Positions 19,972 to 49,016 of a stretch of DNA of 49,017 nucleotides are shown piece by piece. Below the pieces are notes generated by a model, which saw nothing but the letters and a program-made list of their open reading frames with translations, was not told the origin of the DNA and did no database searches. Origin of the DNA: Candidatus Wirthbacteria bacterium (GTDB taxonomy: Bacteria > Patescibacteriota > CG2-30-54-11); assembly GCA_903889905.1 (NCBI GenBank), contig CAISZI010000012.1:1-49017 (forward strand). The letters run 5' to 3'. The first letter of the stretch is position 1, and each line of letters begins with the position of its first letter. Made by a program: the position numbers and the translations under genes.

Positions 19972-20026
19972 GGCTAGAAAACCCTGACAGTAATGAGCAA
20001 AGTCTGGTTGATAGTATACCGCAAAC

Positions 20027-21529
20027 TTAGCGTTTGGTGGAAGTCACCATCTGGCGCAGATCACCGTCTGCAATTGGAGCGATGCCCCCATCAAAGTCCA
20101 AATCCAGCGCCTGCTGGTATTCGTCCTGAGCGCGACTAGCTAGCCCTTTGTGGCGATACACATCACCCAGATTAAGATGTGCGGCAGCCAGGTTGGGATC
20201 GAGCAGCAACGCTTTGTTGATCAGTTGTTCCGCCGCGTCGAACTGACCATCGGCCATCAGCGCCCAGCCATACAAATTCTGCGCTTTGGCCACGGTCGGG
20301 AATTTGTCGGCTGCGGCTTTGGCCGCGGTCACCGCTCGAGCTGTAGATTTTAAATTGTTAATCAAAATATTCACTTCTGAAACACGCACTTCCAGATTGT
20401 CCGGATGCGTTTCAATGGCTTTGGCATAGGCTTTGTCGGCATTGTCAAAGGCCTGATTCTGGGCGCTGGCATAAGCGAGGTGCTGGTAGGTTTCAAACTG
20501 TTTGTCGCCGAGGTCAATGGCCGTGCTGTAACTCAAAATCGCGTCCGCCCATTCGCCAAGCGCCGTGTGAATTTCACCATCAAAATAATACGCCAGAGGA
20601 CTCGGGCTGCTCATTTTCAGACTGACCTCAATTTCCTGTTTGGCGCGCGTCAGATCGGATAACAACAAATAACAATACGCCAAATAATAATGGCCCGCCT
20701 GATAACTGTTGTTATTTTTGACCAGATTCGAGAGCCGGTCCACAGTCATGCTGGGCAGGCCCTGCTCCAGGTATAGTGTGGCAATGGCAATTTCCCGATC
20801 ATTATTGTTGCTGACTGTTTTTAAATTCTGTATGCGCGTTTGTGCGGCTTTGGCTTTGGCTGCGAGCGGCGTGTCCGCAGCGACGTCAATCACGTGCTGC
20901 AATTGCTGCAGTGCCTTGGTCTGATTCTGCTCCCAGATCAGGATGGCATCAAACTGATAGGCCGTAATTTCGTCGGGCTTGATGGCCATGACACGTTCAT
21001 AACTTTTTTTGGCGCCATCAAAATCCCCCAGCCAGATCTGTGCTTCGCCATTGACAAGCAGAATACGCGCTTCCTCGGGTCCTCCTGGCGTGATCAAGGT
21101 AAGGGTTTTGGTGGCAAAGTCCACAGCAGATTTATAACGATGGGAATCCCGATAAATGGTGGCAAGTCGAAACGTCACTTCGGCATTCTGCGGGGCCAGT
21201 TGATACGCGGCCAGCAGTTCCTGTTCGGCGTCGGCCAGCCGGTTTTTGAGCTGGTACAACGCGCCCATACGTAACCAGATACCGGCGTCACTGGGTACTT
21301 TTTGGGACGCTTTTTCATAATACGTAAGCGCCCGGCTGTATTTTTTGGCTGTATACAACTGGTCGCCCGTGGCGATCAATTCAGCCACGCTCATGCGGTT
21401 GATTTTGTCCTGCTCTGCCTGGGCCGGGGTCGATTGCACGCGCCCATAGGTCTGCAACCCCCAGGCCAAAGCCAGCCCGGCGCAGAGGCAAACAATCACA
21501 ACCAGGAGGATTTTGTTGAGTCGGCTCAT
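20027..21529 (-). CDS. Membrane-anchored tetratricopeptide-repeat protein
   Basis: N-terminal TM and repeated TPR-like helices (e.g. AAAHLNLGDVYRHKG). Confidence 0.88.
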   Translation of the reverse strand: MSRLNKILLVVIVCLCAGLALAWGLQTYGRVQSTPAQAEQDKINRMSVAELIATGDQLYTAKKYSRALTYYEKASQKVPSDAGIWLRMGALYQLKNRLADAEQELLAAYQLAPQNAEVTFRLATIYRDSHRYKSAVDFATKTLTLITPGGPEEARILLVNGEAQIWLGDFDGAKKSYERVMAIKPDEITAYQFDAILIWEQNQTKALQQLQHVIDVAADTPLAAKAKAAQTRIQNLKTVSNNNDREIAIATLYLEQGLPSMTVDRLSNLVKNNNSYQAGHYYLAYCYLLLSDLTRAKQEIEVSLKMSSPSPLAYYFDGEIHTALGEWADAILSYSTAIDLGDKQFETYQHLAYASAQNQAFDNADKAYAKAIETHPDNLEVRVSEVNILINNLKSTARAVTAAKAAADKFPTVAKAQNLYGWALMADGQFDAAEQLINKALLLDPNLAAAHLNLGDVYRHKGLASRAQDEYQQALDLDFDGGIAPIADGDLRQMVTSTKR

Positions 21530-24273: not shown

Positions 24274-25164
24274 TTATCCGTTATATCTAAAAAGACTATA
24301 GAGGTAGACGACCAAAACCATGCTCAAAAATGGAAAGGCACTCAAGCTGATCAGCGCTGCAATTTTCTCCCGTTTATATAACGCTACAGCCAGCACAAAG
24401 CAAAGGCCAAAAAGCGCAATCGACCCGGCCCAGACCAGATAAAGCCACTCCCGCTGACCAGTTTGACGCGTCCCTTGTTCGAGGTTATACAGCAGCACCG
24501 CATTGCTCGGCAGCGCCGCGACCACCATAAAAACCATGCCCCCAAACAGCAGCAACGCCAACAGATCCCAGAGCAGCGCGCCCATCATGCGATTGTCCTG
24601 CAGCATGTCCCAGAGCACAGGCAGCACTCGTCGTTCCACTGGAACCGGTGCGGGCAGAGGCTGTTCATTCTCCCCGGGCAGGGCGCGGACTTTGCGGACA
24701 CGGTAGAACGTTGCCAGGAACAACGTCGGATGGGATGGGCTCAAAATCAAGCGCTGGCCACGAAAGGTAAAAGCCATTACTTTTTTGCTGCCCGGGAAAT
24801 AGGTCCAACGCGAAAAACTTTCCTCCGCCTTGGCCTCAAAAGCCAGAATGCCTTTGAGCTGGTGTATGGGATGCAGCTCCTCCAGCGGAAATTCAAATTT
24901 TTTCAACCCCGCGTACACGACAATACTGCGCCCCGTGATGCGGTAACGTAATGTCGAATAGTTAACAATGGCATAGGTAGCATAGACAAGTGTACTCAGC
25001 GTTGCAAAAGTACCCAGCAGATAAAGATAAACAGGCAACCCCTCCGTTGCCCTGTCCATAAACCACAGCAGACATACTGACGCCACGACCAGGACAATCC
25101 ACACGAGCAGCATCAGCACCCAAAGCGAAAGTCGTTTGTTAGTTTTAAAAGGATGGTGAATCAT
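24274..25164 (-). CDS. Membrane protein with bacterial PH-like domain
   Basis: Two N-terminal TMs, YRITGRSIVV...ILSPSHPTLF pattern, C-terminal TMs; coupled to both neighbours. Confidence 0.65.
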   Translation of the reverse strand: MIHHPFKTNKRLSLWVLMLLVWIVLVVASVCLLWFMDRATEGLPVYLYLLGTFATLSTLVYATYAIVNYSTLRYRITGRSIVVYAGLKKFEFPLEELHPIHQLKGILAFEAKAEESFSRWTYFPGSKKVMAFTFRGQRLILSPSHPTLFLATFYRVRKVRALPGENEQPLPAPVPVERRVLPVLWDMLQDNRMMGALLWDLLALLLFGGMVFMVVAALPSNAVLLYNLEQGTRQTGQREWLYLVWAGSIALFGLCFVLAVALYKREKIAALISLSAFPFLSMVLVVYLYSLFRYNG

Positions 25165-33822: not shown

Positions 33823-34668
33823 ATGCCTACCCCAAAAAAAGAAAAATCCATCATCCTTTTCGGCCAGACACAAATCCGGCGGCATTGGGATGACGCCAAG
33901 GAGCAGTGGTATTTCAGTGTTATTGATGTGGTTAGCGTCCTCTCTGGAAGTGACCGTCCCAGAAAATATTGGAACGACCTAAAGAAGAAACTCTCCAATG
34001 AAGGAAGTGAAGTGTCCGATAAAATCGGACAGTTGAAAATGACAGCACCCGATGGCAAACAAAGGGATACCGACGTCGCCGACACTGAAACCATGCTCCG
34101 TATCGTCCAATCCATCCCCTCGCCCAACGCCGAACCGTTCAAGCTCTGGCTCGCGCAGGTGGGTTACGAACGCATCGAAGAAACCGAAGACCCGGAAAAA
34201 GCCATGGATCGGGCTATGCTCACCTATCTCAAAAAAGGCTACAGCGCCGACTGGATCAACCAGCGGCTCAAAAGCATCGAAGTCCGCAAGGAGTTGACTG
34301 ATGAATGGAAAAATCACGACGTCAAGGATAACGAATACGCCATCCTGACCGAGGAAATTACCAAGGCCTGGGCTGGAATGAGTACCAAAGAGTACAGAAA
34401 CTTCAAGGGTCTCAAAAAACAAAACCTTCGCGACCACATGACCAATCTGGAACTGGTGCTCAACATGCTGGCCGAAACCGCCACCACCGAAATCGCCCGC
34501 CAGAATGACGCCCGGGGTTTTGTCCCCAACCGTAAGGCTGCTCGCCAGGGCGGCACGATCGCCGGCAACACCCGTCGCGAGATCGAAGACAAAACCGGCC
34601 AAAAAGTGCTCTCCCGCCAGAATTATTTGCAACTCGATCAAAAAGCAGCCAAGAAGCTTAAACAATAG
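33823..34668 (+). CDS. Bro-N domain protein (BRO family, phage-antirepressor-like)
   Basis: IRRHWDDAKEQWYFSVIDVV, RKYWNDLK, AEPFKLWLAQVG, QNLRDHMTNLEL. Confidence 0.88.
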   Translation: MPTPKKEKSIILFGQTQIRRHWDDAKEQWYFSVIDVVSVLSGSDRPRKYWNDLKKKLSNEGSEVSDKIGQLKMTAPDGKQRDTDVADTETMLRIVQSIPSPNAEPFKLWLAQVGYERIEETEDPEKAMDRAMLTYLKKGYSADWINQRLKSIEVRKELTDEWKNHDVKDNEYAILTEEITKAWAGMSTKEYRNFKGLKKQNLRDHMTNLELVLNMLAETATTEIARQNDARGFVPNRKAARQGGTIAGNTRREIEDKTGQKVLSRQNYLQLDQKAAKKLKQ

Positions 34669-35007
34669 CAAAAGATTCCCATGGCCGCCAAAGCCAGGGA
34701 ACAGTGCATGGAATTGGTGCAATATACTTAGAATTCTTTCCCTCATCAGGATTGCGATGAATTTTCTAACTCTGACCTTAGTCTCAATCTGAAAAACCTT
34801 CTTATTCGCCGCCCGCCGACACTTCCATCGCCATGCTTGATATTATTGCTGCCAGACTTCCCACCCATTCCCGTTTCGTCCGGCTCCACAAACGCTCCCG
34901 GCGTATCCTTTAGGAAGGAACCGCCCTTTTTTGCGCTCAACTATCATCATTGCTTAATAAACTCATCAAGGTTACAATAACAATCCTATTTATTTTCGGA
35001 GCTCACA

Positions 35008-35235
35008 ATGGCCCTGGGGAAAATTCTCGGTTGGGTTATGCTGACCTTTGGATTGTTGAGTTTAATGATTTATGTCAGCATTTGGCTTAAAATTAAAATC
35101 CCTTTTTTTAAATTTTCAAATCTTGAAAATTATGAAAAATCCTTTGGAAAACAAGGCAAGGCTCTCCATTTTTTCCGCTATGTCATTTTTGCTTTAGTTA
35201 TGGGCACACTGATGATACTGGGAATCAGAAAATAA
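35008..35235 (+). CDS. Small two-TM hypothetical protein
   Basis: GGAG RBS, two hydrophobic helices, AT-rich. Confidence 0.6.
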   Translation: MALGKILGWVMLTFGLLSLMIYVSIWLKIKIPFFKFSNLENYEKSFGKQGKALHFFRYVIFALVMGTLMILGIRK

Positions 35236-35244
35236 TGTTCGATC

Positions 35245-35778
35245 TTGGCTTTGAATCCATTGGATTTTGCGATGAAATTTATTTACACCAAAAGCATCAC
35301 CCTGCAAACGGATCTTAGCGCCGACCAGATCCGGGATAAACTTCTCCAGAACCTGGAAACCAAAAGGGTACTCTGGTCGACACCCAAACGCTACGAAGGC
35401 AAGCTGGTCAACAATGCTTTCACCATGCGCCGCTTTATTCGCGGCAAAATCGCCTTCCCGTGGCCCTTTATCGACGGGACAATCCGTGACCAGCGCATCG
35501 AACTAACTTTTCGTTACAATTTCGTCAAAACCAGCCTAAAAGCACTGTTTCTTTTTTGGGGCCTTTTTATGGTGCCACTGCTATTTTGTTTTCTGGCTCA
35601 CATTCCGGTCCTTGGCAGCCCAATCGACGTAATTAGCGTAGTTATTGCAGGACCGCTGCTGATATGGCTGATGCTGCTTGGAGTTTTAGCCCAGGGACGG
35701 GATTATCGTCGCCTCATCACCTGGATTGCTACCGAGAGAAAATTCCTGGTTGATTACTTTGAGGCTACGATCGCCTAA
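35245..35778 (+). CDS. Hypothetical membrane protein, paralog A
   Basis: Aligns by eye with the downstream ORF; start (TTG 35245 or ATG 35272) is uncertain. Confidence 0.75.
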   Translation: MALNPLDFAMKFIYTKSITLQTDLSADQIRDKLLQNLETKRVLWSTPKRYEGKLVNNAFTMRRFIRGKIAFPWPFIDGTIRDQRIELTFRYNFVKTSLKALFLFWGLFMVPLLFCFLAHIPVLGSPIDVISVVIAGPLLIWLMLLGVLAQGRDYRRLITWIATERKFLVDYFEATIA

Positions 35779-35803
35779 TCATTATTCCTACTGAAAGTGT
35801 CGT

Positions 35804-36292
35804 ATGAATCTCCTCGAGCCCAACTATGTCCAACAAATAACAATCGACACCGATCTCACCGCCGATCAAATCCGGGAACGATTGCTTCCGCACTTGGAAA
35901 CCAAAAAATTTCTCTGGGCTTCAAGCAAACGTTATGGCGGCAAACTAGCTGACAATGTTTTTTCCATGCACAAAATCATTAGCACCCGCGGTGGAGGGCC
36001 TTACGCGAACATTGACGGTGTCATCAGTGACAAAAAACTAACAGTAACTTTTCGCTACAACTACGTCAAAGCGTGGTCTCTTTACTTTGTTCTGCTTGCT
36101 ATCCTGACCGTCTTGATGATAGGTAGCTGGATTCCGGGAACCCACTTGGTGGGCGCCCCCGGGACATTACTTTTGTTGATGCTTGTTTTGTTTTTTATCC
36201 CCATTTTTGGTATTGGGACAGAGCATCCTCGCTTAATCAAAAATGTGGCCAAAGACAAGAAGTGTCTAAAAGACTATTTCAATGCTCACTAA
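35804..36292 (+). CDS. Hypothetical membrane protein, paralog B
   Basis: TDLTADQIR, LETKK, KRYGGKL, TFRYNYVK shared with paralog A. Confidence 0.75.
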   Translation: MNLLEPNYVQQITIDTDLTADQIRERLLPHLETKKFLWASSKRYGGKLADNVFSMHKIISTRGGGPYANIDGVISDKKLTVTFRYNYVKAWSLYFVLLAILTVLMIGSWIPGTHLVGAPGTLLLLMLVLFFIPIFGIGTEHPRLIKNVAKDKKCLKDYFNAH

Positions 36293-36296
36293 CCAA

Positions 36297-36959
36297 TTAT
36301 ATTGCAATCGTTTCCAGGATTGGCCTTTTTTCGATCACCTTTGCTTCACTGATCTCCTCCGGCTCAATCCCACACCGCGCAAAAATCTGTCGCTCAATCT
36401 CCAGCCAGTTCTCGAAGTGCCCGGCAAATCGTGCATCGTCGCTGACCGAAATTTTGTGCGCATAACGCACCCGCAAATCCTGCAAGCGTTCTGCCAAGGA
36501 AATCACTCCAAACGGCCCAACGCGCTGATCCGCATACGCAATAATTTTCAGTTCCCAATCGGTACTGGCCAGGATTGATGCGCTTTTGGAAAAGCCCATA
36601 TTGTGCACGATCTCCCGCACCCGTGCCGCGACGCCAATCTCGTCAAGGATTTGATCCGTCGCTGCATGTTCATCGGTACCATACTTCGCTTTGCATTCGA
36701 TTTGCACTTTTTGCCAATACGCCAAACCCTCTGGTTCCAAAACCTCTGGCATGTCACCCAGACGAAACTTGATGACATTGGCCATGTCATGCAACAGGCA
36801 GGCTTGGACGATCGCATCTGTCTCCACGTTGGCATCAAAAGATTCAGCCAGCAATAATCCCACGCCCGCGACACGTAACTGGTGGGTCTGGAGGTTGGGC
36901 AGGAGATGATAACGACGATAAATTTCCAAAATGGATACCACTGTTTCCCCCTCTACCAT
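36297..36959 (-). CDS. HD-domain phosphohydrolase
   Basis: THQLRVA...LLHD...YADQR (H-HD-D); TAATG coupling to the upstream gene. Confidence 0.85.
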   Translation of the reverse strand: MVEGETVVSILEIYRRYHLLPNLQTHQLRVAGVGLLLAESFDANVETDAIVQACLLHDMANVIKFRLGDMPEVLEPEGLAYWQKVQIECKAKYGTDEHAATDQILDEIGVAARVREIVHNMGFSKSASILASTDWELKIIAYADQRVGPFGVISLAERLQDLRVRYAHKISVSDDARFAGHFENWLEIERQIFARCGIEPEEISEAKVIEKRPILETIAI

Positions 36960-38710
36960 TACAATCGATAAAATATTTCCCTCTGATCGGGACTAGCCAT
37001 GGGAGGAGAACCCAGCAAAATTGTTAGTGTCGTTTCCAACTCTTTGCCTTGGTCCGCATAACCAAATCGGTCCAGATAAATACCGGCAAAGCCTTTATCG
37101 CGCAGTGCTTTGATCATGTCAATGGCAGGCAAAGCAGAAACCTGTGCAATCCAGGCATCCGCATCACGCCCCGTCACCGCGCCCGCACTCCAGCGCAATG
37201 TGCGTGAATGCAGATAGGGTCGCAATAAATCATAACTTTGCAGCTGATACAAAACTGGACTTTCTGGAAACACCGCGTACGGCAGCTCAAAAATCATGGA
37301 CTGCGCCGGGACTTGTGCCTCAATGTCACGCACAAATTGTGCGTCGTTGGCGTATGCCGTGTTGATGGAAGGATTTTCCAGGCGTGCGGCGGAAACATTG
37401 GCATAAGAATATGTCTGATCAAAAATTCCACCTGCCAACACCACAACAGCAACCACAAGCGTCACCCATGCTTGTCGACGCCTAAATAGCCGCTGCACCA
37501 CAGCGTCGACGATCACTCCGAAACCCAGCAAAGCGAAAAACCCAATAAAAACACTCAACCGATTGTAGGCGCGAATCATTGGCCCGATCAGCATCGCCAG
37601 CAATGTTCCCAGGCCGCCAATAGTTGCAAACAAAACAGCAAGTAGGGTAAAAATTGAAAGGATTTGCAGCAAAGTGCCTGAAAAATCGTCGTCCCGTTGA
37701 CGCCACCGCCCAAACAAAAGCCAAAGCAGCAGGAACAACAAACCGAGGCTGCCCACCACGCCCAGTGAGGCACTGTCATTTTCAGTAATCAGCGGAAACG
37801 TCCGATTGTAGTGGTCTTTGATTGCAGCGAGCTGTGGTATGCGGTGATTGGTAATGGGCAACACCAGTTGCATAATTTTTAGCCCCAAGGTTTCGGTTTG
37901 TGAAACGTACCGTTCTGAAACTGCCGCATTTTTTTCTTGTTGTGCGGTATAGAGCAAATTGGGAAGCAGTTGCGCGATAATGGCCATCGCCATCAAGCCA
38001 ATCAAACCCACCGCCAGCAACCACGGTTGTAAAGTCTTGGTTCGGCGCCAACCAATGATGCCGGCAGCAAAAAGAAACAGACAAGAAAAAAAGGCGTAAT
38101 AAATGCCTGCACTGGAGGTCAGCAAAACAATGATCAGACAGGCAATCAATCGTTTCGACATCGTTTTGGCAAACTTAAGCTCACCACGCGCAAGCCAATA
38201 AGTAACTAGAAACAACAACGGGATAATAAAGTAGCCGCTCAAAAACAAATGGGCTTCCCCGCGAAAAAAATGATAGGGCAAAAAAGCGAACAAAATCGCC
38301 ATTGTCCCCGCCATCCAGGTCGATAGCTGCAAGCGGCGCATGACAAAAAAAGCACTGACTGCCGCCAGCACAAATGTCAACAAAAAAAACAGATTCATCA
38401 CCAGCACCCAGCTATGACTGAAAATCGCTAGAAATTTGATCAAAACCAGATGCAGGTTGTCGACGGAAAACCAATCGTACAGATTCAAACTGCCCGGCGC
38501 CCCAAGTGACCCATTGTGCAGGTACCAGCCGTGATCAATAATACTTTTGACCGTCGCCGCTGACCAAAGGTTGTCGCTGCCGTATTCCAGGGGAAGCTGC
38601 AAAGCATGCCAGGAAAGCCGCAAGATAACCACCAACAATGCGACAACGACACCAATAAGCACAACATAAGTAACCAAACTCTTTGCCAAAATCTTATCTT
38701 TTGTCGACAA
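36959..38710 (-). CDS. Polytopic membrane protein, probable GT-C-fold glycosyltransferase
   Basis: About 12 TMs, D-containing first loop (YGSDNLW), FLPYHFFR, IRAYNRLS, periplasmic C-terminus; TTG start with AAGGAG RBS. Confidence 0.65.
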   Translation of the reverse strand: MSTKDKILAKSLVTYVVLIGVVVALLVVILRLSWHALQLPLEYGSDNLWSAATVKSIIDHGWYLHNGSLGAPGSLNLYDWFSVDNLHLVLIKFLAIFSHSWVLVMNLFFLLTFVLAAVSAFFVMRRLQLSTWMAGTMAILFAFLPYHFFRGEAHLFLSGYFIIPLLFLVTYWLARGELKFAKTMSKRLIACLIIVLLTSSAGIYYAFFSCLFLFAAGIIGWRRTKTLQPWLLAVGLIGLMAMAIIAQLLPNLLYTAQQEKNAAVSERYVSQTETLGLKIMQLVLPITNHRIPQLAAIKDHYNRTFPLITENDSASLGVVGSLGLLFLLLWLLFGRWRQRDDDFSGTLLQILSIFTLLAVLFATIGGLGTLLAMLIGPMIRAYNRLSVFIGFFALLGFGVIVDAVVQRLFRRRQAWVTLVVAVVVLAGGIFDQTYSYANVSAARLENPSINTAYANDAQFVRDIEAQVPAQSMIFELPYAVFPESPVLYQLQSYDLLRPYLHSRTLRWSAGAVTGRDADAWIAQVSALPAIDMIKALRDKGFAGIYLDRFGYADQGKELETTLTILLGSPPMASPDQREIFYRL

Positions 38711-38821
38711 TCAATCTCCTTGGATTAATTCCCTCAAAAAGATACTCCACTTGGGACATAATAAACAAAAAAGACCAATACGGTAAAAAAATCCGTCTCG
38801 ATCTTTGCCAAAAAAAACGCT

Positions 38822-39463
38822 CTAATTTTCCCGTTTTGCCTGGATTTTCTTTTTGACCTTTTTGACCCGATACAATTCTTCGCGTTCTCGCTCGCTGAGC
38901 ATGAGGTTGATGTAACGAATATCGGATTTGAGCTGTGGTAAAACGACGTTATCCAAAGCATTCACACGACGGCGGGTTTTCTGGATTTCCACGGCCAGAC
39001 GTTTGAGACGAATTTCAACGTCAGCAGCCTGCAAAATGGCCAGCAGCAAAGCCTGAAATTTGTCTGAGACTTCCTCGATACGGCTGCTCACGCTCACCGG
39101 CGAGACACCCTGGGCAATCAGACTGCGCGGCTCGAACAAGCTGGAGACGGTCGGCACCGCGAGTCCCATAATCTTTTCCTGACCAACCTCAATCGTGGTG
39201 TCGCTCTGTACCGCAAAGCTCGCGGACATCAGGTTGAACTTGCCATCGATGGCCTTGGCCAGGACGTGGGCATAGTTGGATTCAGTTGCCACCTGTTCGA
39301 CACGGTCGCGCATTTTGACCACGTCTTTCATGATTTCCATGAAACGCGCGATCAGCACATCGTTCTTCTTTTTCAAAAGATCGCGACCTTGACTGTCGGT
39401 CTGAATCTGGATTTTGCGGGCAATGAGTTCCGTGCGGGTGGCGCGGACGCGGGTAACGGCCAT
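38822..39463 (-). CDS. atpD: V/A-type ATPase subunit D
   Basis: TRTELI...GRDLLKKK, EIQKTRRRVNALD, EREREELYRVK. Confidence 0.96.
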   Translation of the reverse strand: MAVTRVRATRTELIARKIQIQTDSQGRDLLKKKNDVLIARFMEIMKDVVKMRDRVEQVATESNYAHVLAKAIDGKFNLMSASFAVQSDTTIEVGQEKIMGLAVPTVSSLFEPRSLIAQGVSPVSVSSRIEEVSDKFQALLLAILQAADVEIRLKRLAVEIQKTRRRVNALDNVVLPQLKSDIRYINLMLSEREREELYRVKKVKKKIQAKREN

Positions 39464-39469
39464 AAGTCA

Positions 39470-39485
39470 AAATACTAATAACTAA
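39470..39485. repeat. 16-bp sequence also present upstream of subunit A
   Basis: AAATACTAATAACTAA identical at 39470-39485 and 42789-42804. Confidence 0.85.
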
Positions 39486-39510
39486 ATTCTAAGGCCCAAA
39501 CGGGGAGGAA

Positions 39511-39618
39511 AAAATCCCCCTGCTCCCTCCCCTCCAAGGGTGACCCCTTTGGCCTTTACAAGGGGGTCGGATCTTGCCTCTCCCTTTGCTAAAGGGGAAG
39601 GTTGGAGGGAATTCTCCC
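39511..39618. repeat. Bipartite purine/pyrimidine palindromic element, copy 2, in the B-D junction
   Basis: GACCCCTTT..AAGGGGGTC then CTTGCCTCTCCCTTTGCTAAAGGGGAAGGTTGGAGGGAATTC; resembles 1666-1762. Confidence 0.75.
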
Positions 39619-40994
39619 TATTTCCCATAATACTGTTCAATCAGCGCCGGTTTGACTCTCTTGAGCTCTGTCTTGGGCAACATCGAAAGCAGCTTCCAAC
39701 CCACGGCCAGCGTGTCTTCGATGTCGCGGTTCTCATCCATCTGGTTCAGATATTCGTGTTCGAATTTATTGGCAAAATCGAGGTAAAGTTTGTCGGTTTC
39801 GGACAAACCTTCTTCGCCGATGATCGACGACAACTTTTTGAGTTCCACGCCACGCGCATAGAAAGCATAAAGTTGGTCAGCCACGCCACGGTGGTCGGCG
39901 CGCGTCTTGCCTTCGCCAATGCCGAGGTTCATCAGACGCGACAGCGAAGGTAATACGTTGATCGGCGGATTGATACCATTGCGGAAAAGTTCGCGGCTGA
40001 GCACGATCTGGCCTTCAGTGATGTAACCGGTCAGATCCACGATCGGGTGAGTGATGTCGTCGTCCGGCATGGTGAGGATGTCGAGTTGGGTGATGGAGCC
40101 AAGTTTGCCTTTGACGCGGCCGGCACGTTCGTAAAGGGAAGCGAGGTCGGTGTACATATAGCCGGGATAACCACGACGGCCAGGGACTTCTTCACGGGCA
40201 GCGGCAACTTCGCGTAATGTTTCGCAATAGTTGGTCATGTCGGAAAGGATGACGAGCACCTGCTTGTCGAGGTCAAAGGCCAGGTATTCAGCGGCAGTCA
40301 GCGCACAACGCGGGGTCAGGATGCGTTCAACGGAGGGATCGTCGGCCATGTTGAGGAAAAAGACGACTTTTTCAAAGGCACCACTTTCCTCAAAGTCTTT
40401 GCGAAACATTTCGGCTTCACGGAAGCTGAGTCCCATGGCGCCGAAGACGATGACAAAGTCTTCGCCACTTTTGACTTTGGCCTGGCGGATGATTTTGGCT
40501 ACGAGTTCGTTGGCGGGTAATCCAGAACCGGAAAAGATGGGGAGTTTCTGTCCACGCACCAGCGTATTCAGGCCATCAATCGCCGAGATGCCGGTTTGGA
40601 TAAAGTCAGCGGGTTGGTCACGCATGACGGGGTTAAGCGGTGAACCCATGACTTCAAGACGTTTTTGGATGGTGAGTTCCGGGCCATTGTCGATCAGTTC
40701 ACCACGACCGTTGAAGGTACGGCCAATCATTTCGCTGCTCACGGCTAGTTTGGCGACTTCGCCGGTCAGGCGGATTTTGGTGGTGGCAATGTCGAGGCCC
40801 TGCGTGGATTCAAGCACCTGGATCACGGCGAACTTTTCTGTGACCTCCAGGACTTGACCCAAACGTTTGGTGCCATCGGCCAGTTTGATGTGCACGATTT
40901 CGCCAAAACTGGCTTCCTGCAATCCTTCGGCGACCAGAATGGGGCCGGAGATCGACTGAATGGTCTGGAATTCTTTTTGCATCAAACTGTTCAT
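39618..40994 (-). CDS. atpB: V/A-type ATPase subunit B
   Basis: [45 protein letters not shown]. Confidence 0.98.
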
Positions 40995-42757
40995 TGGGCT
41001 CCCTCCAGGGCTGAAATTTGCGTTTTAACTTCGTCTTTGATCTTGTCCAGCACCGCTTTGTCGTGCGGATACGGAACTTCCTTCATGCGCGCCAACTGCT
41101 GTTTGATCGTGAGTGAGCGCAAGGCTTTGAGGCTGACCCCGCGATGCAAAGCTTCTTTGGCACTGCGATAATACTGCAGTAGAGCTTCGAGCATGGTGAG
41201 CTGCTTCGGTAGCGGCGTAAAGGCGTCGATCTCACTAAAAGCAGATTGCTGCAGATAATCTTCCTTGAGCATACGGCAGATTTCGAGGATGAGCTGGTCG
41301 CTCTCGGGCAACGAATCCGGGCCCACGAGTTGCACGATTTCCTGCAACGACTGTTCGGCCTGCAAGAGTCCCATGGCTTCCTGCCGCAAATCTTCGAACA
41401 CCGAGAAATGGTTGCGTTCATACCAGGGTTTCAATACGTTCAGGTAAAGCGAAAAACTCTGTAACCAGTTGATGGACGGAAAATGGCGTTGATAGGCAAG
41501 GTTGCGGTCCAGTGCCCAGAAGGCACCGGAAATGCGCAGACTGTTCTGGGTCATGGGTTCGCTGAAGTCACCGCCGGGAGGAGAAATGGCGCCCACCATC
41601 GAGACGGAACCGATGCGCGCTTCGGCGCCCAGCGATTTGACACGGGCAACGCGTTCGTAAAAGGCGGCAATGCGGGAAGCGAGGTAGGCGGGATAACCTT
41701 CCTCACCGGGCATTTCTTCCATGCGCCCGGAAATCTCACGCAAGGCTTCACCCCAGCGTGAAGTCGAGTCAGCAAAGAGTGCAACGTCATAACCCATGTC
41801 GCGGTAATATTCGGCAATGGTGATTCCCGTGTAGATGGACGCTTCGCGCGCCGCGACCGGCATATTGGAGGTGTTGGCGATGAGCACGGTCCGTTTCATC
41901 AGGGCGTCGCCGGTGCGGGGGTCCTGCAAATGTGGGAATTCGGTCAAAACTTCCGTCATTTCGTTGCCTCGTTCACCACAACCAATATAGACAACCACGT
42001 CGGCGTCCGAATATTTGGCCAGTGCCTGCTGCGTCACGGTCTTGCCCGAACCAAAACCACCGGGAATGATCGAGGCGCCACCTTTGGGCAGTGGGAAAAA
42101 AGTGTCCAGCACGCGTTGACCGGTAATCAGGGGTGTGTCCACGGCAATTTTTTGGTGAAATTTGCGTCCGATACGGATCGGCCAGCGCTGCGCCATGGCA
42201 ATGGTGGCGCCGTCCTCAAGTTCAGCAACCGTGTCACGGACCTTGAAAGAGCCGGATTTGATTTGGGCAAGCGTGCCTTCGGTACCGACCGGCACCATGA
42301 TTTTGTGCAGCACACCTTTGCTTTCGGGTACGGTGCCAATCACGTCGCCGGCCAGGACCTTATCACCGACTTTCATGGTCGCGGTAAATTCCCATTGTTT
42401 TTCCAGATCCAGTGCCGCCACCTGCGTCCCACGCGCGATATAAATACCAGTAGCTTCGGCAATGGTGGTGAGGGGACGTTCAACGCCGTCATAAATCGAA
42501 CCCAGCAGGCCCGGCCCCAGTTCAACTTCAAAGGGACGGCCGCTGTCCACGACCGGTTCCTGCAGGCGGACACCCGAGGTGTCTTCGTAAACCTGAATGG
42601 AAACAGTGTCACCACGCAGGCGAATGATTTCACCCACCAGCTTGAGATGGCCGACAAAAACCACATTGTAAAGCTTGGCAGCATGCAGCCCCTTGGCTTC
42701 GACCACGGGACCGGCAATGCGGGAGATGAATCCTTGCTTAACGTCTGTTTGGGTCAT
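40991..42757 (-). CDS. atpA: V/A-type ATPase catalytic subunit A (no intein)
   Basis: GGFGSGKT Walker [32 protein letters not shown]. Confidence 0.98.
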
Positions 42758-42888
42758 AAGTGATACTTCAGTAAGTTTTATAATTTCTAAATACTAATAA
42801 CTAATCACCAAAAGGAGGGAAACAATATTCACAAGCGTTAATTCAGGCTTCGTTTGACTGTTCGGATTTAGTGCTTAGAATGTTTCGC

Positions 42889-43218
42889 CTATCCTAACTT
42901 CAAATCAAATCCGATCGCCGACCGGATCAGTTTCTGCAGCATGTGCTGCTGGGCAACGCCCATTTTTAATCTCGAGCCCGAGGGGATCAAGATCAAAAGT
43001 GGGGTGACGATCGCAGCGAATTTATTGGTCAGCGCCTCGTCCACAGCTTCGCTGAAATCTTCGGACAGGGCGATCAGGCCAATTTGCTTTTCATCAATGT
43101 ATTTTTTCAGTTCGCGACGGGCATCGTCAAGACTCACCACCGCACAAACCTTGACGCCAGTCAGGCGAAAGCCAATCGCCGTTTCGGGATCCGTAATGAC
43201 CAGGACTTGTTTACGCAT
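42889..43218 (-). CDS. atpF: V/A-type ATPase subunit F
   Basis: VITDPETAIGFRLTGV, IRSAIGFDL; true start is the ATG at 43218 overlapping the subunit C stop. Confidence 0.92.
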   Translation of the reverse strand: MRKQVLVITDPETAIGFRLTGVKVCAVVSLDDARRELKKYIDEKQIGLIALSEDFSEAVDEALTNKFAAIVTPLLILIPSGSRLKMGVAQQHMLQKLIRSAIGFDLKLG

Positions 43219-44266
43219 AGACGAGCTCACTTTCGATACGGGATTTGGGCAGTCCCGATTTGAGGCCGTAGACAAGGATACGCAAATTCGCGCCTTCGTT
43301 GTGTTTGGCGTAGAGGTAAGCGAGCACGATTGCAATCGAGAGCGGATCCTGGCCAAAGAGGGAGATCTGTTCCTGGATGCGCAACTTCTCCAGTCCGCGG
43401 ATCAAACTTTCTAACGAACCATCGACATGCCCCGCGACAAATTCGCCATACGCGCCACGTTTGAGAGCTCCTGCCGCGGCCATCATCGCTTCCTTGAAAC
43501 TGTGCCGATTCAGGTAGTCAGCATAAGGTGTGGACTGACGCTTGGGGAGAGGCAGGAAAAAACTGATTTTCTGCGCCAGTGGCATGGTTTCATGATAGAG
43601 CCGGGCCAGGAGTAATACGTTGACGACATGGATTTCGTTGATCAGCCAGGCGTGCACGATCTCCTGGTCTTCACTGCTCTGCAGCTCGGTTGCAGCACGC
43701 TCGAGTTCGGCATAATAATCGCGGTCCAGTGCAAATTCGAGTGGAAACAGGGAACGGGAACTCTCGTATTGCGGCAGCGCGGCGCGCAAAACTTTGGTAT
43801 AGGGCGAGCGCATACTGCCGAGCATCTCAATCAGCTGGCGTGCATCATGTGTTTTGGCCAGTTCAGCCAGCACACTTTTGTGCAACTTACCCACGGCGTA
43901 CAAATTCTCAACCACAGCGCTGTCCATGACACCGGAATGCTGGGCGCGCAGGATGGTTTTGATATCGCGGATCTCCCATTTACGCAGCCAGACTTCGATC
44001 ATGTGTTTGCCGTCTTCGTCCATCATGTCGCGAATTTGCACAAACTTTTTGAGCACGTTTTTGCGGATACCTTCCTCGACACCCTGGGCGCCGTGGTAAA
44101 GGTGCAAACCCTTTTCGATGTCCGGCCCATACGCAGTTTTGGCCAGGTAACGTGCCACATCGTCGGCATCCTTGCCATCCGCGAGCATGGCCAGATCGGC
44201 GGGCGTAATCAGCTCGCTTTGCATGGCCCGGATGCGGGCATTGATATAAGGGTAATTACTGGACAT
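43211..44266 (-). CDS. atpC: V/A-type ATPase subunit C (d/AC39 family)
   Basis: YPYINARIRAM, LEFALDRDYY, EGANLRILVYG; operon position. Confidence 0.92.
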   Translation of the reverse strand: MSSNYPYINARIRAMQSELITPADLAMLADGKDADDVARYLAKTAYGPDIEKGLHLYHGAQGVEEGIRKNVLKKFVQIRDMMDEDGKHMIEVWLRKWEIRDIKTILRAQHSGVMDSAVVENLYAVGKLHKSVLAELAKTHDARQLIEMLGSMRSPYTKVLRAALPQYESSRSLFPLEFALDRDYYAELERAATELQSSEDQEIVHAWLINEIHVVNVLLLARLYHETMPLAQKISFFLPLPKRQSTPYADYLNRHSFKEAMMAAAGALKRGAYGEFVAGHVDGSLESLIRGLEKLRIQEQISLFGQDPLSIAIVLAYLYAKHNEGANLRILVYGLKSGLPKSRIESELVYA

Positions 44267-44277
44267 AAACAGCCTGT

Positions 44278-44859
44278 TTAACCAAACAAAGTCACGGCAA
44301 TCTGCTCCAGCAGCACGGGTTTGACGCGTTCGAGACGGGCAGCAAAGGTGTTGTCGATGATTACTTTGCCATCGTCCGAGGCATAAATCAGCCCATCTTC
44401 AACGCTTTCGTCAGGGATCACCCTGAGCGCCGGGGCGGTTTTACCAACGAGCAATTTTTGCACTATCCGCTGATCGCCCGGATGCATACGGATCAGACCC
44501 GGCAGGGTGACGACGGTCAACACTTCGCGGCAAAGGTTTTCGATGACCCCACTGCGTTGGCCAGATTGCAGCAGCGCTTTGAGTTCTGCCTGAGCGGCCA
44601 CCAGCACGGCTTCCACCGCCTGCTGCTTCACGTCGACAGCGGAATAGGTCGAGGTTCGGTTGGCCTTGCTCAAGGTACGGGTCGCATCCAGACGCTCGGC
44701 TTCCTGTTGCTCACGCCACCACAGTTGACGATTGGCAGTGACAATTTTTTGCGCGTCCTGGGTGATTTTATCCGCCTCGCGCTGTGCCTGGTGCACCACC
44801 TGTTTGTCTTCATTGGCTCCGGACGTTTGGATCGCCCCTAAGAGCAGATCAAGATTCAT
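44278..44859 (-). CDS. atpE: V/A-type ATPase subunit E
   Basis: N-terminal coiled coil, GLIYASDDGKVIIDNTFAARL; operon position. Confidence 0.9.
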   Translation of the reverse strand: MNLDLLLGAIQTSGANEDKQVVHQAQREADKITQDAQKIVTANRQLWWREQQEAERLDATRTLSKANRTSTYSAVDVKQQAVEAVLVAAQAELKALLQSGQRSGVIENLCREVLTVVTLPGLIRMHPGDQRIVQKLLVGKTAPALRVIPDESVEDGLIYASDDGKVIIDNTFAARLERVKPVLLEQIAVTLFG

Positions 44860-44874
44860 GTTGCCACCTAATGT

Positions 44875-45102
44875 TTAGAGCACGGTAATAATCATGGCTG
44901 CCACCACAAAACCCAGGATGACAATGATTTCAGGCAGGGCCACGAGCACAAGCACCAAGCCAAAAACGTCTTTTTTCTCAGCCACAGCACCGGCTGCAGC
45001 CGCACCGATTTTGGACTGGGCCATGCCTGCGCCCAAACCGGCGATACCAATCGCCAGAGCCGCCCCAATGGCTTTACCGATGACAATCAACGCTGCGTTC
45101 AT
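44875..45102 (-). CDS. atpK: V/A-type ATPase proteolipid subunit K/c (single hairpin)
   Basis: 75 aa, two TMs, AQSKIGAA and ALPEIIVILG with the ion-binding Glu. Confidence 0.95.
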   Translation of the reverse strand: MNAALIVIGKAIGAALAIGIAGLGAGMAQSKIGAAAAGAVAEKKDVFGLVLVLVALPEIIVILGFVVAAMIITVL

Positions 45103-45106
45103 GCCT

Positions 45107-47047
45107 TTACTCCTCTTTTAAATAACCAAATGGACTATAGGGAATACCGCCACCTTCGTGGAATTTACCAAAAAATTCGACTACATTAAGACGGATAGAA
45201 TGGATCGTCGGGCTAAACAGGATAACAACAAAATTCAAGGTGTGCAGCAGCAGTGCCACGATAATGCCCACCACAGGGCTGCCCAAAGCACCCGCAAGCT
45301 GGTTGGCCACATAAGCCAGAACCGCACCGGCAAGCCCCACCGCCATGAGACGGGAATAGGAAAAAATATTGGATATGACGCTGACAATTTCCAGCACGCC
45401 CATGATGCCAGCGCTCCAAATCAGTGCGCCAACGCCAAGCACCGCCAAACCAATCGCTACCAACATGCCCCAGGCAGGCAAAAAATGCAACGCTGCGGCA
45501 GCCGAAAGTCCGATCGCCGCCAGGGCCAGCAACATGCCGACTTTTTCGACCAGATGTTTGACGCCATGGCCGTGCTTGATCAGTTGATACTGGTTAACAA
45601 TACCGAGGACAAAACCAAACACGACATGAAAGGCGCCCACGCCAATGCAGATCAATAAGAGTGGCATCATCATTTTCATGCGGTCAAATGGCCAGGGAAA
45701 ACCAAAGAAATGCCAGAATTCTTCGCCAGCTGGCAATGGAATCCAGTGGAAGCGTGTCGGCAGGTCGCCAAAAAATTCGCCAAACAGAACGCCAAACAGC
45801 AGGGACGAGATACCGCCATAGAGCAGGATGCGGCTCGCCATGTGGCCAACGGCGTTCTTGAGTTTGGATTTAATCAGCAGCGCCAGACCAAGGATAAGCA
45901 AAGCATAGCCAACGTCGCCCACGATCAGGCCAAAGAACAGAGTAAAAAACACACTCACCAGTCCGGTCGGGTCGATCAGGCCATACTGCGGCAGGCTGAA
46001 CATGTCGGTAACAAATTCAAACGGTTTGCTGAAACTGTTATTGCTGAGCTGGATCGGCGGTTCATCGCCATGCTCGATCTCGGTGCGGGCCACAAATACC
46101 TGGCCCTGGAAACGTTTTTCGATGTCATGTTCAAACTTGCCAAACTTCGCGGCCGGCACCCAGCCAATGGTGACAAAGGTGTAATCACTTTCAATCCATT
46201 TTTCCATGGCTGCCATTTGCGTGGTTGCGGCAATCGTCAGCTTGCGTGCCCCGGCCAGTTTGCTGACAAAGGCATGCCCAAGTTTGTTGAGTTCAACTTC
46301 CGCGGTTTTAAGCTCCTGCGGAATGGACTGCAATCTGGCTTCCATCTCCGTCAGTGCCTGCAAAAAAGGCAATTTGGCATAGGTTTCAGGCAGTCTCATT
46401 TCACTTAATTTCTGGTTCGCCAGATGGTCATGCAGCTTGCTTTCAGCAGCAGCCGGATAAGCCAGCACCAGGGCGACGCTTTTGTCGTCCAGGAGCAATT
46501 TGCGGAATTCAAAATCCCCGACGTGTTCTGTCATCCAGGCAAGCAGAATTTCTTCCATGTCGGCATGATGGCTTTCCAGGATTAATCCGCGCACCGCATA
46601 GCCCTGCGGGATCGCCCAGGCGGTCAGTAACCCTTTAAACTGTTTCAAAAAATGGTCGTAAGTGGCCAGCAGCGCTTCGCTTTGTTTCAACACTTCAATG
46701 CGTTGCGATACCGGGGCAATCTCGAGTTCAGCTGGTTCCACAATCGCGACCAGCGCCTTAAGCAGTTCGGCCCCGTGCAGTTCGTGCAAATGTTTGTCGA
46801 TGTGCACGCCATGTTTACGAGTACCCAACACGCTGAGCAATCCACTCAAGCGCAAGGTCAGGTTTTCAAACTGCTCCTTCAGCTCACGCGTGGCCGGTGC
46901 AAGTTCGACTTTTTTAAATCCCGAGGGATAGTTATCACTCTGCAGATCCACAAGATGCAGCAATTGCTCGCGAAAAAGGATGTTCAGCAATTCACTTTGC
47001 AGCGTCTTGGGTGCAGCGATAAGCACTTTTTGCATGGGGACAATCAT
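45107..47047 (-). CDS. atpI: V/A-type ATPase subunit I/a
   Basis: DPTG...FFGLIVGDVGY, FSYSRLMA (essential Arg), RLNVVEFFGKF. Confidence 0.97.
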   Translation of the reverse strand: MIVPMQKVLIAAPKTLQSELLNILFREQLLHLVDLQSDNYPSGFKKVELAPATRELKEQFENLTLRLSGLLSVLGTRKHGVHIDKHLHELHGAELLKALVAIVEPAELEIAPVSQRIEVLKQSEALLATYDHFLKQFKGLLTAWAIPQGYAVRGLILESHHADMEEILLAWMTEHVGDFEFRKLLLDDKSVALVLAYPAAAESKLHDHLANQKLSEMRLPETYAKLPFLQALTEMEARLQSIPQELKTAEVELNKLGHAFVSKLAGARKLTIAATTQMAAMEKWIESDYTFVTIGWVPAAKFGKFEHDIEKRFQGQVFVARTEIEHGDEPPIQLSNNSFSKPFEFVTDMFSLPQYGLIDPTGLVSVFFTLFFGLIVGDVGYALLILGLALLIKSKLKNAVGHMASRILLYGGISSLLFGVLFGEFFGDLPTRFHWIPLPAGEEFWHFFGFPWPFDRMKMMMPLLLICIGVGAFHVVFGFVLGIVNQYQLIKHGHGVKHLVEKVGMLLALAAIGLSAAAALHFLPAWGMLVAIGLAVLGVGALIWSAGIMGVLEIVSVISNIFSYSRLMAVGLAGAVLAYVANQLAGALGSPVVGIIVALLLHTLNFVVILFSPTIHSIRLNVVEFFGKFHEGGGIPYSPFGYLKEE

Positions 47048-47123
47048 GGCAGGACCCTATTTAAAGTGAGTCGCGGTTGGCGTTTAAATGGGGATTTTTA
47101 ATGTTTATTTTTGCCTGCAGTAT

Positions 47124-47444
47124 CTAACTCGCCTGAGGCGGGAGAATTGTCGCAATCACTTCCTTGACGGCCTGATCAAAATGGCGCTTGGACTGTTCCT
47201 GGAGTTGTTCGATTTTGTGCTTGGAACTGATTTCAATGTGTTTCACCTGATCATCAATTTGCGGGTGTGCCGCTTTGGTAACTTCGGGTCGTTTGGCGCT
47301 TTGCCGAACGTCTTCAGCGGATTGGGTCCGGGCATCGGCCAGTGCCTTTTCTGCCTGTTTGTGGGCAGCCTGGTGCGCTTTCACCGTTTGTTTTTCCGTG
47401 CTTAGGATTTGCTCGAGGATGTGTGCTTTCGCCGGTTCTGCCAT
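47124..47444 (-). CDS. atpH: V/A-type ATPase peripheral stalk subunit G/H
   Basis: 106-aa coiled-coil protein, first gene of the operon, GGAG RBS. Confidence 0.8.
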   Translation of the reverse strand: MAEPAKAHILEQILSTEKQTVKAHQAAHKQAEKALADARTQSAEDVRQSAKRPEVTKAAHPQIDDQVKHIEISSKHKIEQLQEQSKRHFDQAVKEVIATILPPQAS

Positions 47445-47480
47445 GGTGACGGTTACTCCAAAAAAATGATCCGCATTGCC

Positions 47481-47509
47481 ATGCTAACGGGAATTTGCAG
47501 GCATGTCAA
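47481..47509 (-). promoter_or_regulatory. Sigma70-type promoter of the ATPase operon
   Basis: Minus strand TTGACA-N17-TAGCAT. Confidence 0.75.
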
Positions 47510-47535
47510 ACCTTGGCAAAAATGAGTTTTGTCGG

Positions 47536-47590
47536 CCAAACAAACAGGCCACTCCTCGCCTGGCTAGAAACCAAAGCGGGAGTGGCCTGT
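47536..47590 (-). terminator. Terminator-like hairpin after the surface-protein gene
   Basis: 12-bp arms ACAGGCCACTCC / GGAGTGGCCTGT, followed on the minus strand by TTGTTT. Confidence 0.6.
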
Positions 47591-47612
47591 GCTGCACCGG
47601 ATTTGGCAAAAG

Positions 47613-49016
47613 CTAGAGGGTATTGTTCCAGAATTCCTGACTATCCAGCAGGGCGGACGAGAGCATCATGCGATCCAGTCCGTTTTGCAAAAGCTGTACC
47701 CAATAATGTTCAGCACTGCTTTCTGCATGCCTTGCCAGGATTTGCTGAAACTGCTCCTGTACGTATTTGGCGTTGAACTCATAGGAATAGAAGAAGTCAT
47801 GAATCATGTCCTGCTTGGTCTTGGCGCCACTGGTAAGCTGGGAGACCCAGTACGCAGCACCCTCTGGATCAGCGGAACGGCCCATGAAATCTTCGTACAT
47901 GGAGTTCACGAACGGCACATTGCCTTGACTGAGATATTCCGACGAATAGGCAAAGGCAGAGATCAAACCGGTTTCACTAAGACCGTTCATCATCCGCCCT
48001 GTCCAGTAATTGAGGCCGCTTTGATCCGCATCCCGATTCATGAATTCGTGATAGATGCCGCGCACAAAATTGCGGTCATATTCTTCCATCTGCAGGAAAT
48101 TGGTGATCAAGACTGTTTTGGTGGTACTGCCATCCAAGAGACGATTGGTCCAATACGTGATGCCTCCGTCTTCGCCAGAACGATTCAAGGCATGCGTATA
48201 TAGCCGCTGCACAAAGCTATGGGTCAAACTCGCCTGAGTGCTGGCAATATTGGCGACAGTTGCGACCGCAGATCCTGTATTACCCGCTGCATCATGGAAC
48301 TGGAAGGTAAAGGTACCATTGCTGCTAAACGAATACGTTAACGCGCCGCCATTGTTGGTCACGGTTACTGCTTCGCTGGGGTGTAAGGTGGCAACAACAT
48401 CGCCAGAAGTGGTGCTGGTGGTGGAATAGCTGACGGTGGCAGTGGGTGCCGTGTTATCCGTATTGAGCTGGCCGACCAGGAAATATCTGGTATTTGGCGT
48501 TGCATCGGCTGCCTTCACACAGAGGAAATCCGTGTGGTCGCCCGCGATCGTGAAGTCGGTGCTGTTGCTAAATGCGGTGCCATAGGTATCGGAAGCATTG
48601 CAGACATTGTCCGCACTGAATCCATAGGCCAAAGATGCGGCATTAAGCAAGGGATCCGTAGCGGTCACGTTAATGGTGTCAAGCTTGACCGGACTCGCTG
48701 CCGTACCATTATTGATGGTAAAAACCGGCGCGGTCGTATCCTGCACAACGACATTGAAGTGCGTTGCCGTCGCTGGATTGCTTGCGACATCAGTTTTGTT
48801 ACAAGTCACCTCCGTCGTTCCCAGGGCAAACACTGTTCCCGATGCGGGCAAACAGGTTGCTGCTGCGGTACTGTCCACATTGTCGGTGGCATTGGGTGCG
48901 GTATAGGTGACTGTGGCTCCAGAAGCAGAAGTCGCTTCTACTGTGACTGTATCGTGAACTGCAATGACCGGGGCGGTCGTGTCATGGACTACAACATTGA
49001 AGTGCGTCGCGATTGC
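47613..49016 (-). CDS. Partial large surface protein with HYR/Ig-like repeats and C-terminal DUF4214-like repeats (5' end beyond window)
   Basis: Frame stays open to the window edge; repeated THFNVVV.DTTAPV; three FV..LY...L.R..D..G..YW...L repeats. Confidence 0.85.
   Translation of the reverse strand, partial: AIATHFNVVVHDTTAPVIAVHDTVTVEATSASGATVTYTAPNATDNVDSTAAATCLPASGTVFALGTTEVTCNKTDVASNPATATHFNVVVQDTTAPVFTINNGTAASPVKLDTINVTATDPLLNAASLAYGFSADNVCNASDTYGTAFSNSTDFTIAGDHTDFLCVKAADATPNTRYFLVGQLNTDNTAPTATVSYSTTSTTSGDVVATLHPSEAVTVTNNGGALTYSFSSNGTFTFQFHDAAGNTGSAVATVANIASTQASLTHSFVQRLYTHALNRSGEDGGITYWTNRLLDGSTTKTVLITNFLQMEEYDRNFVRGIYHEFMNRDADQSGLNYWTGRMMNGLSETGLISAFAYSSEYLSQGNVPFVNSMYEDFMGRSADPEGAAYWVSQLTSGAKTKQDMIHDFFYSYEFNAKYVQEQFQQILARHAESSAEHYWVQLLQNGLDRMMLSSALLDSQEFWNNTL

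Follow-up and report, generated by a model that had tools for sequence, protein, structure and literature searches.

A complete A/V-type rotary ATPase operon on a Candidatus Wirthbacteria contig, probably of a lineage separate from other Candidate Phyla Radiation V/A-ATPases

Among 33 genomes of the Candidate Phyla Radiation (CPR) surveyed by Mahendrarajah et al. 2023 (PMC10656485), 20 encoded an F-type ATP synthase, ten had none and only three carried an A/V-type enzyme, which was put down to horizontal transfer, a Synergistetes-like donor being suggested. V-type ATPases were also described in all CPR metagenome-assembled genomes (MAGs) of a soda-lake study (Vavourakis et al. 2018, PMC6146748) and, in 2025, in Paceibacterales and UBA6257 of hyperalkaline springs (PMC11974145). 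In the cited reports these complexes, which belong to the same enzyme class and to the same broad kind of host as the one described here, replace the F-type enzyme. The subject of this work is an A/V-type rotary ATPase operon on contig CAISZI010000012.1 (assembly GCA_903889905.1, Candidatus Wirthbacteria bacterium); the whole record of 49,017 nt was analysed and is called the window in the following. An initial annotation of this DNA had described the operon as an uncommon module on the premise that Patescibacteria mostly have F-type or no ATP synthase. The survey figures bear this premise out, and the low frequency of A/V types (3/33) stands as well, but the module is not new, being already published for CPR. 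Since it is a documented minority state, an A/V operon in a CPR-affiliated genome is no surprise.

The new part would be the ATPase lineage, which appears to differ from the CPR examples described so far. Overall, we hold it to be quite likely that the window carries a complete, native and probably functional A/V-type rotary ATPase of a Wirthbacteria-related lake-water bacterium, coupled most likely to protons and belonging to a lineage separate from the CPR cases. A scan of GTDB species genomes for such operons returned 80 loci, six of them from CPR genomes: Wolfebacteria (L028), Paceibacterota (L054), two Saccharibacteria (L055 and L061), UBA2163 (L064) and a marine Patescibacteria MAG (L070). 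Because only a few peptide patterns were used in the scan, the 80 loci are a biased sample and not a census.

The operon consists of nine co-oriented open reading frames (ORFs) on the minus strand, which run from 47444 to 38822 in the order G/H-I-K-E-C-F-A-B-D (Table 1). This is the same order as in the operon of Thermus (G-I-L-E-C-F-A-B-D). At six of the eight junctions, neighbouring ORFs overlap or lie no more than 76 nt apart; the other two junctions are gaps of 131 nt (between F and A) and 154 nt (between B and D). Eight of the nine ORFs, including those of the central-stalk subunits D and F and of the coupling subunit C (d), lie above the curated gathering thresholds of Pfam, and NCBIfam likewise names eight of them, as V-type subunits I, K, E, C, F, A, B and D. 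The NCBIfam scores are 851 bits for subunit A (NF003220, cut-off 470) and 735 bits for subunit B (NF003235, cut-off 349). In the case of subunit F, the PF01990 match begins at residue 51 of a longer ORF, and the start was therefore set to the ATG at 43218.

The first ORF (106 aa) was below threshold in Pfam, where V-ATPase_G (E = 0.14) and V-ATPase_G_2 (E = 0.39) nevertheless match it end to end; a sequence search of the PDB gave noise only, and nothing significant was found in NCBIfam. A custom profile was consequently built from its positional homologues, the first genes of six related operons (L001, L081, L084, L002, L034 and L015). Against this profile the ORF scores 27 bits, compared with at most 12.8 bits for 1000 shuffles. 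As this is well above the shuffles, the ORF is assigned to the G/H stalk subunit. With Pfam, NCBIfam and the G/H profile all nine subunits are thus identified, so that both the co-oriented nine-gene operon and the Thermus/archaeal gene order proposed in the initial annotation hold. The presence of a real and complete A/V-type rotary ATPase operon in the window is confirmed.

Table 1. Positions in the window of the nine ATPase genes, of the promoter candidate and of the repeated 16-nt word.
Feature	Position	Strand	Match or context
Subunit G/H, peripheral-stalk partner of E, 106 aa, predicted coiled coil	47124..47444	-	custom profile
Subunit I (a), stator and ion channel, 646 aa	45107..47047	-	PF01496; NF004430 345 bits
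Subunit K (c, proteolipid), 75 aa, single two-helix hairpin	44875..45102	-	PF00137 (ATP-synt_C)
Subunit E, peripheral stalk, 193 aa	44278..44859	-	PF01991 E = 6e-9, residues 12-192
Subunit C (d), rotor to c-ring coupling, 351 aa	43211..44266	-	PF01992 (vATP-synt_AC39) E = 1e-56 full length; TIGR02923 AhaC 171 bits
Subunit F, central stalk, 109 aa, 8-nt overlap with end of C	42889..43218	-	PF01990 E = 5e-14
Subunit A, catalytic, 588 aa, A-specific inserted domain	40991..42757	-	PF00006, PF16886 (Xtn), PF22919 (VA_C), PF02874
Subunit B, non-catalytic, 458 aa, 4-nt overlap with A	39618..40994	-	PF00006, PF22919, PF02874
Subunit D, central rotor shaft, 213 aa	38822..39463	-	PF01813 E = 6e-46; NF001545 173 bits
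Sigma-70-like promoter candidate TTGACA-17 nt-TAGCAT	47481..47509	-	168-nt intergenic region upstream of first gene
16-nt word TTAGTTATTAGTATTT, copy 1	42789..42804	-	in 131-nt gap between F and A, 31 nt ahead of atpA ATG
16-nt word TTAGTTATTAGTATTT, copy 2	39470..39485	-	in 154-nt gap between B and D, 6 nt ahead of atpD ATG

Regarding the catalytic residues, subunit A carries the P-loop GGFGSGKT (residues 233-240) as well as the motifs GERGNE (261-266) and DSTSRW (330-335). A motif check of the 458-aa subunit B found no GxxxxGK[ST] P-loop, as should be the case in A/V enzymes. In the ion path, residues 1-645 of subunit I align end to end with subunit I of Thermus thermophilus (E = 1.5e-36). 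The protein begins with a soluble domain and ends in a membrane domain, with hydrophobic segments only past residue 356, and its Arg566 (SYSR566) and Arg619 (IR619L) match the conserved arginine pair of Thermus (SHIR, PIRL). Subunit K carries Gln29 in helix 1 and Glu58 in helix 2, the latter within the motif LPEII and aligned with the ring glutamate of Thermus in LPE. The claim of intact catalytic motifs in the initial annotation is thus borne out in subunit A, and Glu58 of K and Arg566/Arg619 of I are kept as well. On paper, the complex would be complete.

Solved structures allow these subunits to be placed. The V/A-ATPase of Thermus thermophilus (PDB 6QUM, 5Y5X, 5GAR) is made of the same nine kinds of subunit, and its c12-ring subunit (6QUM, 8YY1) is the best solved relative of subunit K, aligned over residues 11-70. 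In the case of subunit A, the best solved relatives are those of Pyrococcus horikoshii (759 bits), Thermus (701 bits) and Enterococcus hirae (680 bits), in this order. The Thermus system differs from that of the window in the c subunit, where the window has PEI and Thermus PET, and in the hosts, a presumably small-genome, uncultured and CPR-affiliated bacterium in the one case and an aerobic thermophile in the other.

To locate the closest relatives of the operon, subunit A was searched against 5.8 billion clustered proteins and the best 120 matches were considered. No relative exceeded 64% identity, and the best matches that bear names belong to Aquicultorales, Subteraquimicrobiales, Coriobacteriia, other Actinomycetota, Bacillota and Methanomicrobiales. 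In a concatenated A+B tree (neighbour-joining, 45 taxa, 1019 columns, 200 bootstraps), the window groups at 100% bootstrap with loci of the Bacillota MAG Bu80 (L001), a JGI sequence (L081), GCA_040961595.1 (L084), Elusimicrobia UBA5214 (L002) and a Chloroflexia MAG (L034). This clade adjoins archaeal A-type sequences. The six operons from CPR genomes cluster apart from it, as a clade of their own among the bacterial V-type enzymes that does not include the window. The A+B tree had been proposed together with the initial annotation, and in it the window does not group with the other CPR operons. In an A-only tree of 143 sequences, the window stands at the base of a clade that holds all 119 best database matches, beside a Chloroflexia sequence.

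Pairwise comparisons follow the same division. Identities to the operons of the A-type clade are 58-63% for subunit A, 63-67% for B and 29-34% for I, subunit D also matches over its full length, and subunits I, E, C and F of the window have full-length matches to this clade only. In the CPR operons, by contrast, subunit A is 52-57% identical and subunit I matches only in part; no match to subunits E or F of the window was detectable in them, and the match to C is at most weak and partial. Two members of the clade (L081 and L084) share the nine-gene order of the window and have c subunits of 69-73 aa. Together with L001 they also have the c-subunit motif PE[LI] in common with the window, in the form PEL, whereas L002 and L034 have PET like Thermus. 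The hosts of these operons are not CPR-like, with genes for MurJ, alanine racemase, pyruvate:ferredoxin oxidoreductase (PFOR) and Liv transporters found near them. The operon would then belong to an archaeal-like A-type clade that is otherwise one of anaerobic Actinomycetota, Bacillota, Elusimicrobia and Chloroflexia. As it lies outside the clade of the other CPR V/A-ATPases, it was probably gained or retained independently of these cases. No donor can be named.

Because the closest A subunits come from lineages other than CPR, it had to be considered whether the operon is an artefact of assembly or binning, in which a piece of Actinomycetota, Bacillota or archaeal DNA was joined to a CPR-like contig. 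The composition of the operon is indistinguishable from that of the rest of the contig: its tetranucleotide correlation with the remainder is 0.92 (strand-symmetric), compared with 0.88-0.96 for other 8.6-kb segments, and its GC content is 0.53 vs 0.51. Read evidence was taken from four lake-water metagenome runs of one study (X1-X4), for each of which unitigs were built independently. These unitigs match the region at 99-100% identity, and flanks and operon occur together in all four runs at a similar depth of about 2-6. The upstream junction lies within one unitig (47423-47708), which leads from the first gene into the adjoining DUF4214 gene, and the downstream junction is tiled by two overlapping unitigs (38532-38761 and 38744-38960). 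Neither loose ends nor alternative joints were seen at either junction in the unitigs of the four runs. It is true that the low word depth led to short contigs per run and that the downstream junction is spanned by no single unitig, yet the search also offered no candidate donor above 64% identity, and we give the artefact hardly any credence. An assembly chimera, which the initial annotation had named as a possible refutation, is unlikely after this continuity check, in which both junctions were covered and the composition matched; coverage is too low for formal proof. Since the composition is host-like and the unitigs cover both junctions without conflict, the operon is regarded as native.

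A recent horizontal transfer or a genomic island was likewise considered and ruled out by the host-like composition and the lack of a near-identical donor. If the operon was acquired, the event would be an old one, because its composition is fully host-like and no A relative exceeds 64% identity.

Regarding the identity of the host, the window also encodes RecA, RecX, RadA, TilS, ValS, PilMNO, NDK, GpmI, a class I fructose-bisphosphate aldolase, Hsp20 and LOG-family proteins, besides many proteins without a family match. The glycolytic genes listed in the initial annotation were all recovered (fbaB, the class I aldolase, with 646 bits; gpmI; ndk). Two markers, RecA and ValS, were used to place the host. 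RecA is 80% identical to that of Candidatus Wirthbacteria bacterium CG2_30_54_11 and 82% identical to that of GCA_964406175.1, a MAG that has the same RecA-RecX-DnaA neighbourhood as the window; all other matches are at 75% or below. Encoded at 1974-3152, it has 392 aa, compared with 393 and 391 aa in the two Wirthbacteria proteins. Its C-terminus is about 40 aa longer than usual; these two proteins have a similar length, but the tail itself is divergent. In the case of ValS, the best matches reach 53-58% identity, those with a name being mostly of Peribacteria or Peregrinibacteria, and no Wirthbacteria-labelled ValS was found among the top matches. Conversely, no Peribacter RecA was present among the top 120 matches. 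Three Peribacteria-type ValS loci have no gene order in common with the window. Peribacteria are considered an unlikely host, since these loci are not syntenic and RecA points to Wirthbacteria.

Two contigs of relatives, both from one JGI sample, add to this picture. The first (L086) carries a ValS of 57% identity and is collinear with the window over at least 10 genes, and the second (L094) carries a RecA of 71% identity. The collinear block covers 15447-25164 of the window and 2090-18946 of L086, with protein identities of 22-76%, as in a second, distant member of the lineage. It comprises the class I aldolase, a 570-aa glycosyltransferase-like protein, a 296-aa protein, ValS, a TPR protein, a DNRLRE/CBM96 protein, PilM-PilN-PilO, NDK and TilS. 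On L094, recA adjoins the genes for pyruvate formate-lyase and its activase.

Wirthbacteria have been used as outgroup or sister of CPR in published trees (PMC6146748) and have been counted as a CPR phylum by others (PMC8651080). For this reason ‘CPR-like’ is a fair label for the host. With RecA as the decisive marker, the host would be a Wirthbacteria-related, CPR-affiliated bacterium. The Patescibacteria-like host of the initial annotation therefore appears approximately right as far as the affiliation to CPR is concerned, given the RecA identity of 80-82% to Wirthbacteria, and is less certain as regards Patescibacteria in the strict sense.

This placement raises the question whether there is anything unusual about the operon at all, as A/V-type ATPases could be routine in Wirthbacteria and vertically inherited. 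RecA places the host with an outgroup of CPR and not inside CPR, and the fully host-like composition of the operon would agree with such an inheritance. On the other hand, no Wirthbacteria-labelled protein occurs among the 120 best A-subunit matches, which reach down to about 58% identity, although a labelled Wirthbacteria RecA sits in that same database; incompleteness of the MAGs could explain the missing A subunit. Altogether we consider this explanation unlikely, though worth keeping in view.

A more far-reaching form of the same idea is that Wirthbacteria, as the immediate outgroup of CPR, inherited a deep-branching, archaeal-like A-type enzyme vertically and use it instead of an F-type ATP synthase. 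We think this rather improbable. If true, the bioenergetic starting point of CPR would not simply be the Chloroflexota-like F-type enzyme inferred by Mahendrarajah et al. 2023 (PMC10656485); the alternative would be that the ATPase was replaced at least two times independently on the CPR stem.

The conserved residues suggest how the enzyme would work. A3B3 would bind ATP and either hydrolyse or make it, and subunits D, F and C(d) would form a rotor shaft fixed to a ring of single-hairpin K subunits. The E-G stalks and subunit I would serve as stator, so that the K ring turns against I, with an ion path that would lie between the two arginines of I and Glu58 of K. In a cell of the glycolytic, fermentative type that the contig suggests, glycolytic ATP would most likely be spent on proton-motive force for transport and pH homeostasis. 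ATP-driven proton export appears to be the likeliest role, because the window has glycolytic genes and no primary ion pump and a relative carries pyruvate formate-lyase; this role depends on genes outside the 49 kb.

Coupling to protons is proposed because LPEII, which has no hydroxyl ligand beside the glutamate, makes Na+ binding unlikely. A Na+-coupled enzyme, as proposed for soda-lake CPR and for the V-ATPase of Enterococcus hirae (PDB 3VR2, 2BL2), would find two of the known Na+ ligands in Gln29 and Glu58. The residue after Glu58 is, however, Ile and not Thr or Ser, and no other polar residue is nearby in helix 2. Furthermore, K of E. hirae, although homologous to that of the window, is a duplicated 156-aa protein of four helices with one Na+ site (the NtpK type), whereas the window has a single 75-aa hairpin without the Thr ligand, and the source is lake water and not an alkaline brine. 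Altogether, a Na+-coupled enzyme is improbable.

Concerning the direction of the enzyme, the same hairpin can be read differently. With one carboxylate per two helices, like the c12 ring of Thermus, the c subunit would have a high ion-to-ATP ratio, which would favour synthesis at low driving force and limit the gradient that a pump could build. The Thermus V/A-ATPase indeed synthesises ATP. The enzyme could thus be mainly an ATP synthase, driven by a gradient from other complexes of the cell, from a host or from the environment. Consistent with this, the closest operon (L084) adjoins PFOR genes, and for related Actinobacteria it was proposed that a V-type ATPase works together with Rnf in synthesis (PMC7325909). 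Within the 49-kb window, however, no respiratory, Rnf, hydrogenase or pyrophosphatase gene is found, and published CPR studies read such ATPases as consumers of fermentative ATP (PMC6146748). A main role in synthesis is therefore possible but doubtful, and ATP-driven proton export is preferred.

Several points weigh against the overall interpretation given here, that of a native, probably proton-coupled ATPase of a separate lineage. The trees are distance-based and the window sits on a long branch, so that its pairing with Chloroflexia in the A-only tree may be due to long-branch attraction. The taxonomy appears to hang on one strong marker, RecA, with ValS weaker and having another nearest neighbour (Peribacteria). 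The enzyme is known here from its genes alone, and its direction and ion specificity are what we infer from them. An F-type operon, a respiratory chain, Rnf or a pyrophosphatase may lie beyond the 49-kb record. Finally, Thermus pumps protons despite its PET motif, and the c-subunit motif rule is for this reason one-directional.

With respect to expression, the initial annotation had given the operon its own promoter. A site of the proposed TTGACA-N17-TAGCAT type does exist upstream of the first gene, where it fits 10 of 12 positions, and a GGAG lies about 13 nt ahead of the first-gene ATG. Such sites are no commoner in the region than in shuffles (7 observed vs 6.2). As this count equals chance expectation, a promoter function is suggested by position alone.

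The two long gaps inside the operon, at 42758-42888 between F and A and at 39464-39617 between B and D, each hold a copy of the 16-nt word TTAGTTATTAGTATTT. Two exact copies are found in the whole window, compared with 0.13 expected by chance, and the word is missing from the 91 loci compared. The other operons of the A-type clade have neither the two gaps nor the word; in L081 and L084 there are only 9-30 nt at the same junctions. RNA folding of the long gaps was no better than that of shuffles (z = -0.9 and -0.2). The word could stand for a promoter inside the operon or for a signal in the processing or translation of atpA and atpD. Apart from the word, the gap between B and D has long G-runs and C-runs, and the antisense (plus) strand of the gap between F and A carries a promoter-like TTGACT-16-TAGAAT at 42854-42881, which fits 10 of 12 positions and is probably due to chance.

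Some other regions of the contig were noted in passing. At 35000-37800, beside the operon, run X2 has zero depth over 2.8 kb, though the operon is covered in that run at about 1.5-3. This stretch holds two unannotated ORFs, an HD-domain gene and part of a gene for a 583-aa membrane protein, and may represent low-coverage dropout or strain-level variation. Both the GC content (0.46-0.48) and the tetranucleotide correlation (0.877) reach their minimum on the contig in the segment 28000-36600. This segment encodes a 705-aa protein and several other ORFs, all without a family match, as well as a Bro-N domain protein (33823-34668). It could stem from a phage or another mobile element, with the class I aldolase gene breaking it up. 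At the contig end (48724-49017), unitigs of three runs show joints that go back 243 nt, together with a cluster of single-nucleotide polymorphisms at 48787-48850, upstream of the DUF4214 gene. These signs point to a tandem repeat of 243 nt or to a variable region of a surface protein, which is probably why the assembly stops there.

In conclusion, the finding leaves the working principle of the enzyme unchanged, and A/V-type ATPases in CPR had already been published. The contig comes from a poorly sampled lineage, with identities of at most 58% for ValS and 64% for subunit A, and should be useful for studies of Wirthbacteria diversity. It provides a data point on how the membrane may be energised in reduced, probably fermentative bacteria at the base of CPR, and it suggests that CPR-affiliated lineages acquired A/V-type ATPases on more than one occasion and not from a single source.

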